This document shows positions 10,671 to 55,774 of a DNA stretch of 64,000 bases, piece by piece. Every line of letters begins with the position of its first letter. Within the stretch, counting starts at the first letter, position 1. The stretch spans positions 10,035-74,034 of the forward strand of contig JAFVQU010000011.1 in the NCBI GenBank assembly GCA_017504625.1. The letters are read 5' to 3'. Under the pieces are notes generated by a model. The model made no database searches. It had not been told where the DNA came from and worked only from the letters and a program-made list of their open reading frames with translations. The position numbers were made by a program, and so were the translations under genes. The DNA comes from Clostridia bacterium. Lineage in GTDB: Bacteria; Bacillota; Clostridia; Oscillospirales; CAG-272.

Positions 10671-10746
10671 GCACCTTTAGCTCAGTTGGTAGAGCAACTG
10701 ACTCTTAATCAGTGGGTCCCGGGTTCGAGTCCCTGAAGGTGCACCA
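10671..10746 (+). tRNA. tRNA-Lys (anticodon CUU), CCA encoded
   Basis: 76 nt. Acceptor gcacctt/aaggtgc, D arm gctc/gagc, anticodon stem actga/tcagt with loop cTCTTAa (anticodon CTT). T arm ccggg-ttcgagt-ccctg has one C50:U64 mismatch. Confidence 0.9.
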
Positions 10747-10750
10747 AAAA

Positions 10751-10789
10751 TAAATAAAGGGTAGCATAGGCTACCCTTTATTTATTTTT
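10751..10789 (+). terminator. intrinsic terminator after tRNA-Lys
   Basis: Long stem taaataaagggtagc / gctaccctttattta with loop atag, then ttttt. Confidence 0.85.
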
Positions 10790-10799
10790 AGTCCATGTT

Positions 10800-11220
10800 T
10801 TATGACCGAACCCGCGCCAATCGCTTGCGATTGGTTTCCACGTGCGCTAAATGTTTTTCGATTTTAATTTGATGTTGGCGCACGTGAGGGTTCTGAGTCC
10901 CCGAAGTCCCACTGAATTATGCCTAGACCGCTAGGCAAGGCAACGCCTTGCCTATTCGATGCGCGCATAAAACCCTGTGCTTCACATATACTTCAGCGCG
11001 CATAAGGGTTCAGAGCTCCCTGAAGAACCTATTTAATGCTCCAAACCCGCCACCCTGCGAAGCAGCGGTGTCCGACGTGCGCTAAATGTTTTTCGATTTT
11101 AATTTGATGTTGGCGCACGTGAGGGTTCTGAGTCCCTGAAGCTACCACTAATTATTTCTAACCCGAGCCAACCGCAAGGGATTAACTTCGACGTGCGTTA
11201 AAAACAACTTGCTTTTTTGA
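10800..11220. repeat. tandem array of ~117-bp structured units (3 full + 1 truncated), each ending in a tRNA T-arm-like module
   Basis: 10839-10906 and 11075-11141 are near-identical (period 235). The intervening unit 10958-11025 keeps the same architecture with a different 8-9 bp stem (atgcgcgc/gcgcgcat versus cacgtgcgc/gcgcacgtg). All full units end with AGGGTTC(T/A)GAG(T/CT)CCC(C/T)GAAG. Confidence 0.8.
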
Positions 11221-11242
11221 TATTTATTTTAAATATTATACA

Positions 11243-11271
11243 TTGACACCAAAAAAATCCTATGCTATAAT
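11243..11271 (+). promoter_or_regulatory. SigA-type promoter
   Basis: TTGACA, 17-nt spacer, TATAAT; 30 nt upstream of the glycoside hydrolase start. Confidence 0.7.
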
Positions 11272-11300
11272 TAGAAAAACTAATTTTATTGGAGGTTATT

Positions 11301-52460: not shown

Positions 52461-53225
52461 ATGAATCGTTTGGAAGGTAAGGTTGCCATCATTACGGGTG
52501 GAAATTCGGGCGTCGGCGCGGCTACGGCACTCAAATTCTCATCTGAGGGCGCAAAGGTAGTAATTACAGCTCGCCGTGAGGCTCAACTTGAGGAGGTCGC
52601 TGCGATGATCCGAGAGGCGGGAGGCGAGGTTCTTCCCGTAGTCAGCGATATCTCGAAGCCCGAGGACGCAAAGAGAGTAGTTGCTGAAACACTCGCTAAA
52701 TTCGGCAAGGTCGACGTTCTTATCAACAACGCAGGCGTGCTTGATAAAGGACTTAAGGCGATTGATAGCGTGACCGACGAGGATATGGATAAGGTTATCG
52801 ATATCAACACAAAGGGAACTATGTGTATGACTCGCGAGGTTACCGTGGAAATGGCAAAGACGGGCTACGGCTCTATCGTCAACGTTGCATCGGTTGCAGG
52901 TGTAATGGGCTGCGGCGGTGCGGCTTACGTCGCATCCAAGGCGGCAATAATCGGTCTTACAAGACACACCGCGCTTCGTTTTGCGGGTACTAACGTACGT
53001 TGCAACTCGATCTGTCCCGGCACGATAGTAACCCCTATGGTTGCAGGTATGAATCCTGCTAATATGGATATGAACATTTTCGGTCAAATGATGAAGCATA
53101 ACGACCTCAAGGTTCAGCCTTGTATGCCCGACGACGTTGCGAATATGCTTTTGTTTTTCGCGTCGGACGAATCCCGAGCTATCACAGGTCAGTCGATAGT
53201 AACCGACTTTGGTTCAACGCTCTGA
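52461..53225 (+). CDS. SDR-family oxidoreductase
   Basis: AGGAGG, then ATG at 52461. TGGNSGVG, NNAG, YVASKAA. Confidence 0.88.
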   Translation: MNRLEGKVAIITGGNSGVGAATALKFSSEGAKVVITARREAQLEEVAAMIREAGGEVLPVVSDISKPEDAKRVVAETLAKFGKVDVLINNAGVLDKGLKAIDSVTDEDMDKVIDINTKGTMCMTREVTVEMAKTGYGSIVNVASVAGVMGCGGAAYVASKAAIIGLTRHTALRFAGTNVRCNSICPGTIVTPMVAGMNPANMDMNIFGQMMKHNDLKVQPCMPDDVANMLLFFASDESRAITGQSIVTDFGSTL

Positions 53226-53233
53226 AGCGTATA

Positions 53234-53272
53234 AAAAATCCCCCGATTCAATTTGGATCGGGGGATGCTTTT
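53234..53272 (+). terminator. intrinsic terminator
   Basis: atcccccgat-tcaatttgg-atcgggggat, then gctttt. Confidence 0.75.
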
Positions 53273-53337
53273 ACGTTTGTCAGATTATGAGAAAAAACGT
53301 ATTGAGAAAAAATATTTTGAAAAGTTTATAAAAGGGG

Positions 53338-53366
53338 TTGACAAAGGATAATAATTGTGGTATAAT
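53338..53366 (+). promoter_or_regulatory. SigA-type promoter of the tRNA-Leu/tRNA-fMet pair
   Basis: TTGACA, 17-nt spacer, TGgTATAAT. Confidence 0.75.
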
Positions 53367-53412
53367 AACTTTTGCGAGCCGATACGGGAGTCCATAACGG
53401 TCGTCCAAGAAT

Positions 53413-53501
53413 GCCGGTGTGGCGGAATTGGCAGACGCCCGGGACTTAAAATCCCGTGATACGAGAGTATCGTACCGGTTCGAGACCGGTCACCGGCACC
53501 A
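53413..53501 (+). tRNA. tRNA-Leu (anticodon UAA), class II, CCA encoded
   Basis: Acceptor gccggtg/caccggc, anticodon stem cggga/tcccg with loop CTTAAAA, variable arm gatac-gaga-gtatc, T arm accgg-ttcgaga-ccggt. Confidence 0.9.
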
Positions 53502-53523
53502 CAATTGTGGTAAAATTAAATAT

Positions 53524-53601
<78 letters not shown>

Positions 53602-53603
53602 AA

Positions 53604-53644
53604 AAAGAAGTAACTTTTGTCTACCAAAAGTTACTTCTTTTTTT
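53604..53644 (+). terminator. strong intrinsic terminator after the tRNA pair
   Basis: 16-bp stem aaagaagtaacttttg / caaaagttacttcttt, then tttt. Confidence 0.88.
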
Positions 53645-53646
53645 AT

Positions 53647-53834
53647 CCAAGCCGCAGGCTTGGTATATCATTGACGCACGAAGTGCGGCGTATATCATCA
53701 GCCCCTTTGGGGCTGTATCTCATCACGCACCAGCGTGCATCTCCCTGCGGCTTGATGATATACAACACTTCGTGTTGATGATATACCGCAACAAGTTGCG
53801 GATGATATACACGCCTTTGGCGTGATTGAGATGC
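53647..53834. repeat. tiled array of 7 different GC-rich mini-hairpins, each followed by a conserved AT-rich 10-mer, in two opposed blocks
   Basis: Left block: TATATCATTGA (53664), TATATCATCA (53691), TATCTCATCA (53716). Right block, reverse complement: TGATGATATAC (53753, 53776), GATGATATAC (53801), degenerate GATTGAGATG (53824). Hairpins at 53647-63, 53675-87, 53701-13, 53724-37, 53763-77, 53787-800, 53811-23. Confidence 0.85.
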
Positions 53835-53851
53835 GAGAACATGAAAATCTC

Positions 53852-53880
53852 TTGAATATGCCATTGAAATATGGTATAAT
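53852..53880 (+). promoter_or_regulatory. SigA-type promoter of the AT-rich two-gene islet
   Basis: TTGAAT, 17-nt spacer, TGgTATAAT. Confidence 0.65.
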
Positions 53881-53900
53881 ACACTCAAAGAGGTGATGTT

Positions 53901-54248
53901 ATGGCTAAAAATTATTTGCTGATATATTCAGAACAACTTGCAACGGAAATAGAATTACTTTGTCAAAATATAAAAGTACCGTCTAACACTCTTTTTCAAA
54001 TTCGTAAAAGCTCGAGTAGTGTTTATGCTAATATTCGTGAAGCCAATTACGGACAGAGTAAAGCGGATATGCTATCCAAATTCGAAATTGCTTTGAAGGA
54101 ATGTAGCGAAACCGAAGGTTGGTTGCAGTTGTTATTTAACACGAACGGCATTGATGAAGATACGTATAAAAATCACAGAAATCTTTGCGGACGTATTCGA
54201 AGAATATTAATCGCAAGTTGTAAAACGTTAAAGGAGATGCGAAAATGA
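53901..54248 (+). CDS. four-helix-bundle protein (23S rRNA IVS protein / Avd-like family, TIGR02436-type)
   Basis: 115 aa. IREANYGQSKADMLSKFEIALKECSETEGWLQLL is the family signature as I remember it. RBS agaggtgatgttATG. Confidence 0.7.
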   Translation: MAKNYLLIYSEQLATEIELLCQNIKVPSNTLFQIRKSSSSVYANIREANYGQSKADMLSKFEIALKECSETEGWLQLLFNTNGIDEDTYKNHRNLCGRIRRILIASCKTLKEMRK

Positions 54249-54919
54249 CCTGGGAAGACCATTTTATAATAGAAGATGATAATAAATATATCCGTTTTAA
54301 CCCCAGCGAACGAGATTTATGGGGAAATAATCATCGTGATAATATCGAGAATAATATTAATGTTTTGGAACTATCTTATAGACAAGAAGACAATGAAGGC
54401 TGGGGCGCCGGTGGTGGAGAATATATTACTACACAAGATATAGCGGAAATTTCCCATGGCATACAACGAGTTTTAAAAAAAGAAAGTAATCAATTCACAT
54501 ATAATTGTTTAGATGAAGTAATAAAAATAAGCATCAATGTAAAAACGAATGATTTGCTTGACTTTACATTCTCAATGATTGAAACTTTATGTCGAGAATA
54601 TTATATTACCATCACTATGAACAATTTAACCTTTGAGGAATTTACAGAGAAGACTAAAATTTTCATCGAGTGGGAAAAGCAGTTCCCTATATTAGAAAAG
54701 TCATGGTTATCACTGTATCATGCAACATATGACAAAATCTTTCAACACGATTGCGACCACGGCACACGATGCGAAGCTAATTTCAATATAAAGGTTGATG
54801 ATTTGTTAGAAAACAACCCTCATGGTTTGGGTGATTTTTTAATTCGACTATTGACCTATTTTGAAGAAAACTCAAACATCAACTCAAACACTCTAGCCAA
54901 TTATATAAGCAACCTCTGA
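54245..54919 (+). CDS. hypothetical protein (224 aa), no recognisable domain
   Basis: ATGA overlap with the upstream gene (GGAG in ...aaggagatgcgaaaATGA). AT-rich codons. No signal peptide or TM segment. Confidence 0.65.
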   Translation: MTWEDHFIIEDDNKYIRFNPSERDLWGNNHRDNIENNINVLELSYRQEDNEGWGAGGGEYITTQDIAEISHGIQRVLKKESNQFTYNCLDEVIKISINVKTNDLLDFTFSMIETLCREYYITITMNNLTFEEFTEKTKIFIEWEKQFPILEKSWLSLYHATYDKIFQHDCDHGTRCEANFNIKVDDLLENNPHGLGDFLIRLLTYFEENSNINSNTLANYISNL

Positions 54920-54970
54920 TAGATAAATATTACAAAAAGAATATTGAAAAACACGGATAATATTGGTGTA

Positions 54971-55017
54971 CTTTTAGTCGTTCTTACCCCACTTCGCGCA
55001 CCTTTTAGTCGCTCTTA
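54971..55017 (+). repeat. 16-nt imperfect direct repeat at the right edge of the AT-rich islet
   Basis: cttttagtcgttctta (54971-54986) and cttttagtcgctctta (55002-55017); 15/16 identical, period 31. Confidence 0.6.
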
Positions 55018-55020
55018 GGC

Positions 55021-55051
55021 AAAAAGAAAAGGCAGCACACCGTGCTGCCTT
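55021..55051 (-). terminator. intrinsic terminator of the YwaF-like gene
   Basis: Minus strand: aaggcagcac-ggt-gtgctgcctt, then ttctttttgcc. Confidence 0.8.
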
Positions 55052-55066
55052 GTCGTTTATCTATGT

Positions 55067-55774
55067 TTATTTATTTTTCAGCTTTCTCTCTCTGATAATA
55101 AACGGCAAATGGAAAAGCGTGATTATCACCGCGCCGAGCGTAACGATATGTAAAAAGTAAACGTACCAGCCGTAGTCGAGTGTCAGAAAGGGCAAATTTT
55201 TCATCGGAGGGCGCACGAGATACATAAAGTTCGTGTTGTACTGCGAAAGCGCGCTGTTGACGTATATCATTGCCCAGACGAGTGAGAGCAGGCATATCAT
55301 ATTTCTGCCGAGAGCCTTGATGCCGAGCTTTGCATGACCGCAAATGATGAGATAGAGCGAAAACCACAAAAGTCCGGCATGGTAAACGAAGCACTGATAC
55401 GCAAGTATTTTGGTAAAATCAGTTCCGTTTGTGGGTATGAGAAGCGCGCATATGCTTCCAAGCGTTCCCATAACTGCCATAAAGTCAATTACAGTCTGCT
55501 TAGCCTTGCCTTCTTTGCCAAATGTAATAAAGAGTACGGCAAATATCATCAAACTGCAAAGGTGAAAAGGCAGTGACGTAGGCTCAAGAAACATGCCGCC
55601 CTTTTCCGATTCAGTCATGTCGCTCATTATTTTGCTTATCTCACTTACCGCACAGATGCCGCACATAATATATCCCGCAAATTTGAGCGAAAAGCTCTTC
55701 TTGCTGATAAACGTCATAAGTGCCACAAATAACGCGCACAGACCTAACCATATAAAATGCTCCGTTGTGAACAT
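55067..55774 (-). CDS. YwaF/TIGR02206 (TMEM164-like) membrane protein, second copy in the window
   Basis: GGAGG before the ATG at 55774 (MFTTEHFIWLGL...). LPFHLCSLMIF matches FPFQLCSIPMY of the 20765 gene. Confidence 0.65.
   Translation of the reverse strand: MFTTEHFIWLGLCALFVALMTFISKKSFSLKFAGYIMCGICAVSEISKIMSDMTESEKGGMFLEPTSLPFHLCSLMIFAVLFITFGKEGKAKQTVIDFMAVMGTLGSICALLIPTNGTDFTKILAYQCFVYHAGLLWFSLYLIICGHAKLGIKALGRNMICLLSLVWAMIYVNSALSQYNTNFMYLVRPPMKNLPFLTLDYGWYVYFLHIVTLGAVIITLFHLPFIIRERKLKNK

Follow-up and report, generated by a model that had tools for sequence, protein, structure and literature searches.

A dyad-symmetric mini-hairpin array associated with the 3' CCA ends of tRNA and tmRNA genes in Oscillospirales

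An array of seven GC-rich mini-hairpins alternating with copies of a 10-nt motif, located at 53647-53834 of the window (the whole 64-kb stretch of DNA that was analyzed), constitutes the head of a 1.42-kb module, 53602-55021, which is found present or absent between otherwise identical flanks, and array elements of this kind are abundant in gut Clostridia. The covariation of their stems shows that the hairpins are selected for pairing while stem sequence is free, and the composition of pairs and loops points to DNA hairpins or a cruciform rather than to RNA. The explanation we prefer, although tentatively, is that the array may be a structure-specific, dyad-symmetric DNA platform that serves the cassette and is probably bound by an Avd-like pentamer. 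The interpretation given in the original prediction held in part: a DNA-level role and a small element beside a tRNA gene are retained, while an iteron or parC region, integrase arm sites and an operator of the adjacent two-gene islet are not.

Anatomy of the array and of the module that it heads

The tiling of seven hairpins and 10-mers along 53647-53834, anticipated from the letters alone, is borne out by the coordinates of motifs and hairpins. Three copies of GTATATCATC are found in the left half, and three copies of its reverse complement, GATGATATAC, followed by a degenerate fourth, in the right half. In the left block (53663-53737, plus strand), motif M1 (53663-53672) reads GTATATCAT(T/C), M2 (53690-53699) GTATATCATC and M3 (53715-53724) GTATCTCATC, with a spacing of 27 and 25 nt, and they alternate with hairpins H2 (53675-53687), H3 (53701-53713) and H4 (53724-53737). 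The right block (53754-53833, plus strand) has GATGATATAC at 53754, 53777 and 53801 (spacing 23 and 24 nt), hairpins H5 (53764-53776), H6 (53787-53800) and H7 (53811-53823), and the degenerate copy GATTGAGATG at 53824-53833. The first hairpin, H1 (53647-53663; CCAAGCC-GCA-GGCTTGG), whose 5' half plus loop we call segment a, follows an invariant TATCC (53644-53663 including H1, plus strand), and TTTATCC is directly 5' of H1 in 36 of 39 canonical arrays. At the center (53737-53754, plus strand) there is another degenerate motif copy, GCATCTCC, and then segment a', CCTGCGGCTTG (53744-53754), whose expected complementarity to H1 proved exact, since it is the complement of CAAGCCGCAGG (53648-53658), that is, of the 5' half and loop of H1. 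When up to one mismatch was allowed, the 10-mer gave 15 matches in the window, six of them inside this 150 bp, with about 3.9 expected per 64 kb, and none of 100 shuffles reached 15. With DNA parameters, either strand of the array folds far better than shuffled sequences (dG around -50 kcal/mol, z around -7.6), and RNA folding is also strongly favored for either strand (z from -5.1 to -5.6). The predicted fold of either strand is a ladder of four-way junctions; the a-a' complementarity crosses this ladder.

The order of elements in the module is terminator, array, promoter, PF05635 gene, variable second gene and two direct repeats. Upstream of it, tRNA-Leu(taa) (53413-53501) and tRNA-Met(cat) (53524-53601), both on the plus strand, were identified by ARAGORN and Rfam, and the comparison of empty and occupied sites places the insertion point at the CCA end of tRNA-Met (53599-53601). 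The left end of the module is a bidirectional terminator (53602-53643) made of an A-run, a hairpin with perfect 19-nt arms, a loop region TCTAC and a T-run, its arms spanning 53601-53643 as an inverted repeat. The same terminator hairpin follows tRNA-Met, tRNA-Leu(gag), tRNA-Val(cac), tRNA-Arg(acg), tRNA-Gly(gcc), tRNA-Ser(tga) and tmRNA, and it is missing at the empty site (L152), which indicates that it is carried by the element. Downstream of H7 there is a segment, GATTGRGAYGCGAGA, whose conservation is seen in loci with the four-helix-bundle gene, and then the cargo promoter (53852-53880, plus strand), with TTGAAT, 17 nt and a TG-extended TATAAT. Gene 1 (53901-54248, plus strand) codes for a 115-aa, Avd-like four-helix-bundle protein (PF05635/TIGR02436, "23S rRNA IVS protein") that matches PDB 2RLD with an E value of 1.3e-15; the 120 best of its 3394 homologues all reach an identity of 89% or more, in agreement with the invariance of the motif. 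Gene 2 (54245-54919, plus strand) codes for a 224-aa variable cargo protein with a weak WapI-like match, the N-terminal half of whose structural model appears to bear a weak resemblance to the PUR/Whirly fold, and this second gene differs between cassettes. Neither of the two proteins had a match in PADLOC.

The right end of the module consists of two direct repeats, CTTTTAGTCG(T/C)TCTTA (54971-54987 and 55002-55018, plus strand), and ends in GGCA at 55021; right ends of the same type are present on other cassettes (L003, L091, L124, L125 and L155). Beyond it lies the resident bidirectional terminator of the target site (55029-55051), common to a TMEM164-family gene, which in the empty allele is found directly after the tRNA CCA, so that the empty-site junction reads CCA followed by AAAAGACAAGGCAGC. 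A circle-type junction of the right and left ends would read GGCA followed by AAAAAAGAAGTAAC. The right-end sequence, ..CTCTTAGGCA, contains no copy of a tRNA 3' end, and the target-site duplication that was to be looked for at 53645 and 53835 does not exist: the mobile unit is larger (53602-55021), and an ambiguous A-run is the most that could count as a duplication at its own ends.

Distribution of the array, target sites and selection on the hairpins

The comparative data were metagenome assemblies, analyzed as 8-kb loci together with the one 64-kb window, and arrays were searched for in species-representative genomes with the pattern GATGATATAC-N12-18-GATGATATAC. Further copies were found in this way on at least 120 contigs, nearly all of them from Oscillospirales. 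In 42 clusters exactly three minus-oriented copies precede three plus-oriented ones, and the opposite order was never seen. Homologous loci keep the spacing and the orientation of the 10-mer, the array does not belong to any more extended non-repetitive conserved sequence, and the 81-codon minus-strand open reading frame that covers it was rejected, being open in 14 of 39 arrays only. The complementarity between a and a' is kept in at least six sequence classes, with a mean run of 9.8 nt versus 6.4 ± 0.36 for permuted partners. A second long-range helix, between the stretch before a' and that after H7 (GCATCTC/GAGATGC in the window), is not general, with a mean score of 5.54 versus 5.28 ± 0.15 when partners are permuted, and is a plausible candidate for the four-helix-bundle subfamily alone. 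Motif variants are kept across genomes at specific positions (GTATcTCATC at M3, GATGATATgC at M'2) and are not complementary to their predicted partners; no covariation between left and right 10-mers was found, and pairing between the blocks is therefore without covariation support. The number of units varies (9 in L047, 12+4 in L079, 7 in L068), units recur among different arrays in the manner of a vocabulary, and the design also occurs with other variants of the linker. Some one-orientation arrays, such as that of L047, abut a ribosome-binding site and must be transcribed. The gene behind an array of a second type, AATGATG (L006), codes for a membrane protein without relationship to the four-helix-bundle protein and was discarded as a relative. 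A scan of viral contigs with the pattern gave seven matches, four of which were 12-13-nt coding tandem repeats, and of the other three only L140, located beside the 3' end of a tRNA, is a clear case of a genuine array.

A tRNA or tmRNA 3' CCA and a long terminator hairpin are directly 5' of the array in 30 of 36 canonical arrays; in these the A-run of the terminator starts at the CCA, and 23 anticodons are represented. The module can be followed between sites: an occupied locus (L002) and the empty one (L152) share both flanks, the sequence is 96.7-99.8% identical behind tRNA-Met and behind tRNA-Ser(gct), and two tandem cassettes were found behind one tmRNA gene. The empty site was reached through the downstream gene, as contigs break in the array when approached from the upstream SDR gene. 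Other small insertions, which duplicate the tRNA 3' end, accumulate at the same sites. No recombinase, transposase or reverse transcriptase is encoded in the module and none is recurrent among the downstream ORFs of arrays, no recombinase was noticed in the window as a whole, nor was a RAYT (Y1 HUH) gene recurrent beside arrays in the 8-kb loci and the 64-kb window. These data agree with the suggestion of a small element beside a tRNA, devoid of its own recombinase, and extend it to several tRNAs and tmRNA. Among 96 ORFs downstream of arrays, no family other than PF05635 (12 matches) was recurrent. All four-helix-bundle loci with enough upstream DNA carry the array, and around 80% of arrays have no adjacent four-helix-bundle gene, their hairpins and motifs being still perfect. 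The PF05635 protein linked to the array is present in gut metagenomes in thousands of nearly identical copies, for the most part on contigs below 2 kb, and among the contigs examined several stop within the array.

The 440 units analyzed contain 270 distinct spacers, whose stems covary freely, the 10-nt linker alone being invariant. Perfect stems that are anchored at the spacer ends and have 4 bp or more are present in 209 of the 270, compared with 10.3 ± 2.9 in shuffles. When the 59 spacers of 13 nt were aligned, 97.6% of cells were paired (65.3% after shuffling), double-sided changes amounted to 94 (21 after shuffling) and the covariation score was 0.88, versus 0.21 in shuffled and at most 0.19 in slid controls. 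The 1401 stem pairs include 10 G-T and 8 A-C combinations, loops are mostly of 2-3 nt, and 185 of 238 hairpins close with a C-G pair. Read on the top strand, the ratio of G(N)NA to T(N)NC loops is 14:1 in the left block and 0:26 in the right one, G(N)NA loops lying on the motif strand only. This location, along with the near absence of G-T wobble, argues for hairpins or a cruciform of DNA and not of RNA. Spacers range from 9 to 40 nt, which implies that helical phasing is not kept in the duplex. A scan of 52500-55500 against Rfam 15 (E ≤1) returned the two tRNAs, one low-scoring overlap on them and a sub-threshold match to the terminator, and no match to the array. The preference for a DNA-level over an RNA-level role expressed in the original prediction finds support in the few G-T pairs, the short loops, the loop polarity that flips with the motif and the absence of an Rfam match.

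A possible platform for the cassette and competing explanations

As we picture it, the array would be the cis-acting, non-coding head of small Oscillospirales cassettes that have no recombinase of their own and would target tRNA and tmRNA genes at their 3' CCA. The GC mini-palindromes would extrude in vivo, giving a cruciform, or hairpins where the DNA is single-stranded, and since extrusion removes the variable-length spacers, the 10-nt motif copies would come to lie adjacent; in either strand, the three GTATATCATC could then pair with the three GATGATATAC, and the resulting ladder would have three four-way junctions, from which the hairpins project as side arms. We infer that the binder of the array is the four-helix-bundle protein: the platform would be recognized by a protein, most likely the pentameric Avd-like protein of autonomous cassettes, acting also in trans, which would cover the many arrays without cargo. 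The platform may serve integration, excision, copying or maintenance of the cassette and would presumably act in its mobility, while the left-end terminator would re-terminate the tRNA operon and insulate the cargo promoter. A bolder proposal, which we regard as rather improbable, is a new kind of mobile element that, encoding no recombinase, would home to the mature-type 3' end (CCA) of tRNA or tmRNA genes of any kind; the multi-hairpin array, folded as single-stranded DNA, would be the structure recognized by the Avd-like pentamer, in cooperation with an enzyme provided in trans. In its retro-homing version, the tRNA or tmRNA would lend its 3'-CCA-OH as primer for copying an antisense cassette RNA that ends at the bidirectional terminator, a scheme that would account for the invariant junction between CCA and the A-run hairpin, and the hybrid cDNA would then enter the tRNA gene by recombination. 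Looking for encoded CCA as a test for an RNA intermediate was uninformative, because it is encoded in all the tRNAs of the loci (99/99).

One competing explanation is that of a host-level structural repeat similar to REP/BIME elements, functioning at the 3' ends of highly transcribed genes as a supercoil sink or gyrase site, as a termination aid or as an insulator, and spread passively or by an enzyme in trans, with cassettes that would do no more than carry it or adjoin it. It would account for an extragenic location always directly after a terminator, for the majority of copies without cargo, and for the satellite-like expansion and contraction of units in L047, L079 and L068, the shared units and the other linker variants, but in the empty allele comparison the array arrives with the four-helix-bundle module, the strong bias towards tRNA/tmRNA CCA (30/36) would not be expected of an accessory to terminators in general, the window's two other tRNA loci have no array, and REPs conserve the palindrome and vary the linkers, the reverse of what is seen here; we therefore consider it unlikely, if the strongest of these competitors. 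A structured RNA seems to us distinctly improbable; produced by read-through of the tRNA operon or in antisense, it would be a multi-hairpin molecule that serves the four-helix-bundle protein as sponge or scaffold or that affects processing or stability, in analogy to the 23S rRNA intervening sequences with PF05635 ORFs, which RNase III processes. Selected RNA helices usually contain several percent of G-U pairs and on one strand only, and Avd binds RNA-protein complexes in diversity-generating retroelements (DGRs). The latter fact is in favor of an RNA, together with the favorable RNA folding of either strand and the presence of some one-orientation arrays in 5' leaders (L047), and intervening sequences of the RNA level that have long terminal stems are known to harbor PF05635 ORFs (PMC4990558). 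Against it, G-T pairs are as rare in the stems as A-C mismatches, loops of 2-3 nt predominate, no Rfam family is matched, and the array sits between a terminator with perfect 19-bp arms and a promoter that points away from it; moreover, as the polarity of motif and loop flips between the halves, no single transcript would contain one consistent unit.

A relic attachment-site arm of a tRNA-integrated island, mobilized in trans by an integrase like a cis-mobilizable element, with CA/AAAA at the terminator foot as core (the slash marks the junction), the array as one arm and the right-end repeats as the other, has in our opinion only a small chance of being correct. Both module junctions do read CA/AAAA(G), the joined ends would, as read from the sequence, give three CTTTT(A)GTC sites 31-33 bp apart, tRNA and tmRNA 3' ends are classical integrase targets, and the other small insertions at the same sites duplicate the tRNA 3' end. 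However, the 23 tRNA species and tmRNA share nothing beyond CCA, the right end carries no duplicated tRNA 3' end, neither the module nor the downstream ORFs provide a recurrent integrase, and arm sites would leave the selection on hairpins and the strand-specific loops unexplained, and the classical arm sites initially suggested find no support. Least probable of all, and by our estimate very much so, is a complex operator or autoregulatory region through which one or both islet proteins would control the islet promoter at 53852-53880. The array does lie directly upstream of the -35 element, GATTGRGAYGCGAGA is conserved in four-helix-bundle loci, and in a Cloacimonetes MAG (L043) the same 10-mer flanks a promoter; yet about four fifths of arrays precede unrelated genes or a convergent terminator, with no islet behind them and with perfect hairpins and motifs, the 9-40-nt spacers destroy duplex phasing, and the second islet gene varies between cassettes.

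The array is an undescribed DNA element and represents a natural case of selection on the formation of DNA hairpins, and not on their sequence, in an unusual geometry, the predicted ladder of four-way junctions, and it provides the PF05635/S23p/Avd-like family with a defined cis partner and a link to stable-RNA genes. If the bolder proposal of homing to any CCA end were true, PF05635 proteins outside DGRs, including those of 23S rRNA intervening sequences, would be adaptors of selfish elements residing on stable-RNA genes. On the practical side, arrays fragment metagenome assemblies beside tRNA genes.

Relationship to known systems

We found no previous description of a conserved tRNA/tmRNA-linked array in the literature, where the 10-mer occurs incidentally in unrelated papers, and the papers on PF05635 offered no function outside DGRs. 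Several known classes were considered and rejected. A CRISPR array does not fit with a 10-nt repeat in two orientations, palindromic spacers common to several loci and no cas gene, and the RNA repeats of type III toxin-antitoxin systems were rejected outright. The plasmid or phage iteron or parC-like region put forward at the outset was discarded, as there are no rep or par genes and a distant blastn of the module gave no similarity among 72,556 plasmids and 50,697 phages. A MITE would not have a terminator and array on the left and two direct repeats on the right, ends that are unrelated and without duplication beyond the ambiguous A-run. An integron cassette with attC was dismissed on account of the junctions CCA/AAAA and GCA/AAAA, the multi-hairpin array and the absence of a visible intI. 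Neither is the module a tRNA-integrated island with one cognate target, as the array family follows 23 anticodon classes and tmRNA and the module itself is found behind tRNA-Met and tRNA-Ser, nor one with an integrase, as only the four-helix-bundle and 224-aa proteins are encoded. A 23S rRNA intervening sequence was set aside since the module follows the CCA of tRNA-Met and no rRNA is present in the 52500-55500 interval scanned, and a DGR proper because the window contains no candidate reverse transcriptase (YxDD motif screen of ORFs of at least 200 aa) and no TR/VR-like repeat of the module.

Partial similarities with these and other systems are nonetheless informative. Group IIC introns also use terminator stem-loops in single-stranded DNA as landmarks, recognized by structure, but the intron RNA domain and the encoded protein are absent from the module, which inserts at the 5' foot of the resident terminator, after CCA and not after the T-run. 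With integron attC sites the array has in common a recombination-site logic by which structure is kept while sequence is free and the folding of a single strand, with conserved mismatches, defines the site, although for the array such folding is a prediction; cassettes in tandem at one locus and arrays without a nearby integrase are found in both. It differs from them in the absence of the R''/L''-L'/R' boxes and the GTTRRRY core, in its multiple hairpins instead of one bulged hairpin, in cassettes that bring their own promoter and terminator, and in its target, the tRNA CCA end. The REP/BIME elements of enterobacteria and pseudomonads are likewise extragenic mosaics of short palindromes and linker motifs, found at the 3' ends of genes in opposed orientations and variable unit number, foldable as small hairpins or as one long hairpin, and most of their copies are distant from the enzyme gene. 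The array resembles them in being extragenic, located after a terminator and organized in opposed blocks, and lacks their conserved imperfect palindrome of around 20-40 nt: in REPs the palindrome with its GTAG head is conserved and linkers vary, whereas here the 10-nt linker is invariant and palindromes are free. REPs show no specificity for tRNA CCA, and REPINs are mobilized by RAYTs, while the partner of the array is PF05635.

The closest parallels involve proteins of this same family. The 23S rRNA intervening sequences with S23p (PF05635) ORFs of Coxiella and Leptospira are also selfish insertions attached to a stable-RNA gene, with a long perfect boundary stem and a variable number of short repeats upstream of the ORF (PMC4990558). 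They reside inside helix 25 or 45 and are removed at the RNA level by RNase III, while the module has its own terminator and promoter, is located after the CCA of tRNA or tmRNA genes and displays DNA-type signatures. DGRs, for their part, have a single hairpin beside a variable repeat, along with a reverse transcriptase and a template repeat, as opposed to the seven hairpins and AT-rich 10-mer of the array. Their target sites contain GC hairpins in which the stem sequence is free and the 5'-GRNA loop is specific to one strand, and the system requires Avd (PMC3240598; PMC10053308). The array shares with them the GC hairpin in which pairing is required and stem sequence free, with a G-R-N-A type loop specific to one strand (PMC3240598), which here takes the form of G(N)NA loops on the motif strand, the Avd-family four-helix-bundle protein (PF05635, TIGR02436), and the location at gene 3' ends, near terminator-like structures.

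Plan and distribution of the array

The array (window positions 53647-53834) is bounded on one side by the tRNA-Leu(taa) and tRNA-Met(cat) genes (53413-53601) and a terminator whose 19-nt arms pair perfectly (53601-53643), and on the other by a promoter of strong type, TTGAAT-17-TGgTATAAT (53852-53880). After TATCC come seven GC-rich mini-hairpins (H1 to H7) with a 10-mer between them, in versions GTATATCAT(T/C), GTATATCATC and GTATCTCATC in the left half (M1 to M3), and as three copies of GATGATATAC (M'1 to M'3) plus a degenerate GATTGAGATG in the right half. Near-matches to the 10-mer number 15 across the 64-kb window, where about 3.9 would be expected, and six of them fall within these 150 bp. 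The window sequence and a repeat analysis of the array thus agree with the original prediction of seven hairpins and a 10-mer in two opposed halves, and also with the proposed complementarity between the switch point and the first hairpin, the central CCTGCGGCTTG being the exact complement of CAAGCCGCAGG in H1.

Other genomes contain the 10-mer/hairpin unit with the same orientation plan. A scan for exact GATGATATAC-N12-18-GATGATATAC, with one genome per species, located the pattern in at least 120 contigs, nearly all of them from Oscillospirales MAGs of animal guts; among the matches listed, the carriers were Acutalibacteraceae, Oscillospiraceae, Faecousia and unclassified 'Clostridia'. These array counts are lower bounds, by contig rather than by copies per genome. 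Exactly three minus-oriented copies followed by three plus-oriented ones were present in at least 42 clusters among the matches listed, none of which had the reversed block order with this 10-mer. All the comparative loci are metagenome or MAG contigs, in which the number of units in a single assembly may be wrong, but the 3+3 plan is credible since it recurs in at least 42 independent contigs. Oriented copies have in common, on the left, [..CCA][A-run, long perfect hairpin, T-run] TATCC [H1] M [H2] M [H3] M [H4] and, after H4, G(C/T)AT.. [a'] M' [H5] M' [H6] M' [H7] GAT..., with two position-specific variants conserved across genomes, M3 GTATcTCATC (23 of 39 arrays) and M'2 GATGATATgC (18 of 39). 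The array had no match in Rfam, the element showed no similarity to plasmid and phage records, and no paper was found using the 10-mer in the sense of this element.

Variants of the design were also observed. One-orientation expansions, including duplicated blocks of two or three units, occur in contigs L047 (828-1031, 9 units), L079 (18-387, 12+4) and L068 (610-761, 7). Contig L006 (1440-1640) carries a same-design array in which four copies of AATGATG precede four of CATCAT(T/A), the block order being reversed; it too stands between a terminator and a promoter. In L075 (reverse strand, ~1180-1500) the linkers are of the TGATATCC type. These linker variants suggest a wider superfamily of hairpin-linker arrays. 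The 10-mer is present in a Cloacimonetes MAG (L043, 4017-4096) as tightly packed inverted copies around a TTGACA promoter and without GC hairpins, which may be an unrelated operator or chance.

A module at the 3' ends of tRNA and tmRNA genes

In 46 of the 120 arrays listed, covering 23 anticodons, a tRNA 3' end lies 50-65 nt from the first motif, and in 30 of 36 canonical arrays the A-run of the terminator begins directly at ..CCA. Seven further arrays lie 219-285 nt from a tRNA, with a different small insertion of ~170-230 nt in between; the last 17-25 nt of the tRNA are repeated where this insertion ends, so that these arrays are also behind a CCA end. In the few exceptions, the array comes after a stop codon or the right end of another cassette. 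The terminator belongs to the element, since the same sequence stands behind at least six different tRNA species and a tmRNA gene.

Comparison of alleles defined the limits of the module. In the empty allele (L152-L154) the tRNA-Met 3' end and a downstream TMEM164-family gene adjoin (..CCCCGCAACCA/AAAAGACAAGGCAGCAC..., the slash marking the junction), while the occupied allele, in L002 with the same two flanks and in the window, reads ..GCAACCA/AAAAAAGAAGTAAC ... AGTCGCTCTTAGGCA/AAAAGAAAAGGC.., which sets the bounds at 53602-55021, to within a few A residues. These ends had neither inverted sequences nor, beyond the A-run, the target-site duplication that had been proposed as a check. The module is 99.8% identical to the window in L002 and 96.7-98% in L003 and L005, where it is behind tRNA-Ser(gct); related cassettes are found behind tRNA-Ser(tga) and, as two tandem copies, behind the tmRNA gene. 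An identical 115-aa protein, the product of its first gene, appears in several genomic contexts, behind a tRNA 3' end, terminator and array wherever there is sufficient upstream DNA, and several of its contigs break inside the array, as fits a multi-copy sequence. Presence or absence between the same flanks, and occurrence behind different tRNAs, support a mobile element, one of the types to which the array had been likened, and on these sequence comparisons the array heads a mobile module. Its right end is a direct-repeat pair, CTTTTAGTCG(T/C)TCTTA, ending in (A/T)(G/C)GCA, which is common to other cassettes, and the terminator of the next cassette can directly adjoin it. In the window (54971-55021) the CTTTTAGTCG.. 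repeats are similar to ACTTTTGTCTACC, the arm and loop of the terminator at the left end; read from the sequence, joining right end to left end would place three CTTTTAGTCG/ACTTTTGTCTACC-like sites 31-33 bp apart.

Other elements were seen at tRNA ends. The small insertions form a second family (~170-230 nt) with their own terminator right after CCA (L005, 1462-1672; also L008, L152, L028, L040, L051, L053, L069, L108 and L128), and L005 and L008 have the insertion and the four-helix-bundle module in different orders. In one strain (L002, 394-2023), an element with small ORFs and a gene of the resolvase family is located directly before the module and upstream of a partial tRNA-Met 3' end, which indicates that several mobile elements use the same tRNA end. 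Elsewhere in the window (10740-11300), a terminator with arms of 26 nt comes after tRNA-Lys(ctt), and behind it lies a non-coding 235-bp tandem repeat (copies at 10840-10930 and 11075-11165, 87% identity; a partial third at 11189), rich in other hairpins and a different kind of tRNA-trailing repeat.

Selection on the hairpins and the level at which they act

Of the 270 distinct spacers between same-orientation motifs, 209 had a stem anchored at the spacer ends with 4 bp or more and no mismatch (shuffles, 10.3 ± 2.9). Aligned without gaps, the 59 distinct 13-nt spacers had 97.6% of their cells paired (65.3 ± 1.8 when shuffled), 94 cells changed on both sides (21 shuffled) and a covariation score of 0.88, as compared with 0.21 in shuffles and at most 0.19 in slid controls. 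The spacers are selected as structures, with pairing as the target of selection. Near-identical modules differ in whole compensated hairpin swaps (e.g. aacacTTCgtgtt vs aatgcTTCgcatt) and in gain or loss of units, and hairpin units are common to different arrays, so turnover looks like unit exchange and palindrome homogenisation, not slow point mutation. Between otherwise near-identical modules (L003 and L010 vs L006), the terminator loop is inverted (GGTAGAC vs GTCTACC) and the terminator stems differ by fully compensated changes.

The signature is of a DNA type, as had been considered more likely than an RNA role. Among 1401 stem pairs only 10 were G-T and 8 A-C, whereas selected RNA would have many G-U, on one strand only. 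Loops are mostly of 2-3 nt, with a C-G closing pair in 185 of 238 hairpins, and on the strand carrying GTATATCATC they are of the form G(N)NA (GAA, GCA, GTA, GCAA, GAAA); cGNAg and GCGAAGC-type loops are the textbook examples of mini-hairpins with very high stability in DNA. Counted on the top strand, G(N)NA and T(N)NC loops number 14 and 1 in the left half, and 0 and 26 in the right half. This polarity reverses together with motif orientation, giving the same pattern on both DNA strands and hence an element that is dyad-symmetric in design. Spacers range from 9 to 40 nt, by which helical phasing in duplex DNA is lost, something of no matter once they fold, as they presumably do.

Folding with DNA parameters predicted, for either strand, H1, three four-way junctions arranged as a ladder (M1:M'3, M2:M'2 and M3:M'1, with side arms H2/H6 and H3/H5 and H4 at the tip) and then H7, with a dG of -49 to -51 kcal/mol (z -7.6). 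Segment a (the 5' half and loop of H1) is complementary to a', which immediately precedes the first right-hand motif. At least six sequence classes show this complementarity (GCCGCAGG, GCCGACAG, TTGCGAAAGC, TTACGGAGT, GTCGCAGA, GCCGAAAGG), with a mean complementary run of 9.8 nt vs 6.4 ± 0.36 with permuted partners. This pairing crosses the ladder. The window also suggested a helix GCATCTC/GAGATGC, which was discarded as not general across arrays.

An RNA role could be argued from L047, where the array adjoins a ribosome-binding site and must therefore be transcribed, but the DNA-type stems and the flip in loop polarity speak against it. Alternatively, the array could serve as operator of the islet promoter, as the attachment-site arms of a trans-mobilised island, or as a host REP/BIME-like architectural repeat. 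Of these readings, the one with the most support is a DNA-level platform of structure plus motif, belonging to a cassette family that homes to tRNA and tmRNA 3' ends.

Associated genes and known systems

Among 96 ORFs downstream of oriented arrays, PF05635 was the only recurrent Pfam family (12 matches) and no recombinase was recurrent. The first gene of the module (53901-54248) encodes a four-helix-bundle protein that matches PF05635, TIGR02436 and PDB 2RLD (five chains). To this family belong also the S23p ORFs found in 23S rRNA intervening sequences, and it resembles Avd of diversity-generating retroelements (DGRs) (PMC4990558; PMC10053308). The protein has 3394 homologues, the best 120 of which are all at least 89% identical, most of them on contigs under 2 kb. 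The following gene varies between cassettes (unknown proteins, nucleotidyltransferase, MazG-like, TPR). In the window (54245-54919) it encodes a 224-aa protein with only 15 homologues and a weak WapI-like match, modelled (mean pLDDT 77) as an N-terminal (beta4-alpha)x2 half and a helical C-terminal half. The former weakly resembles the single-strand nucleic-acid binders PUR-alpha and MRP1/MRP2 (Foldseek E 0.016-0.08), so that a PUR/Whirly-like fold is a lead, not a finding. The G+C content of the islet is ~33%, vs ~45% in the flanks. An Avd-like pentamer would be the most likely binder of the platform, and the cassette would undergo excision.

The element differs from known systems in having no candidate reverse transcriptase or TR/VR pair in the window (DGRs), no intron (group IIC introns, which also read terminator hairpins in single-stranded DNA; PMC3240598), no integrase in the module (integrase islands), no RAYT recurring next to the arrays (REP/RAYT), no attC core (integrons) and no rRNA context (23S rRNA intervening sequences), and membership in any of these families was rejected on the absence of such hallmarks. 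In function, the nearest parallel is the target site of DGRs, where homing depends on a GC hairpin with a strand-specific GRNA loop and a stem free in sequence, and where the system needs Avd (PMC3240598).
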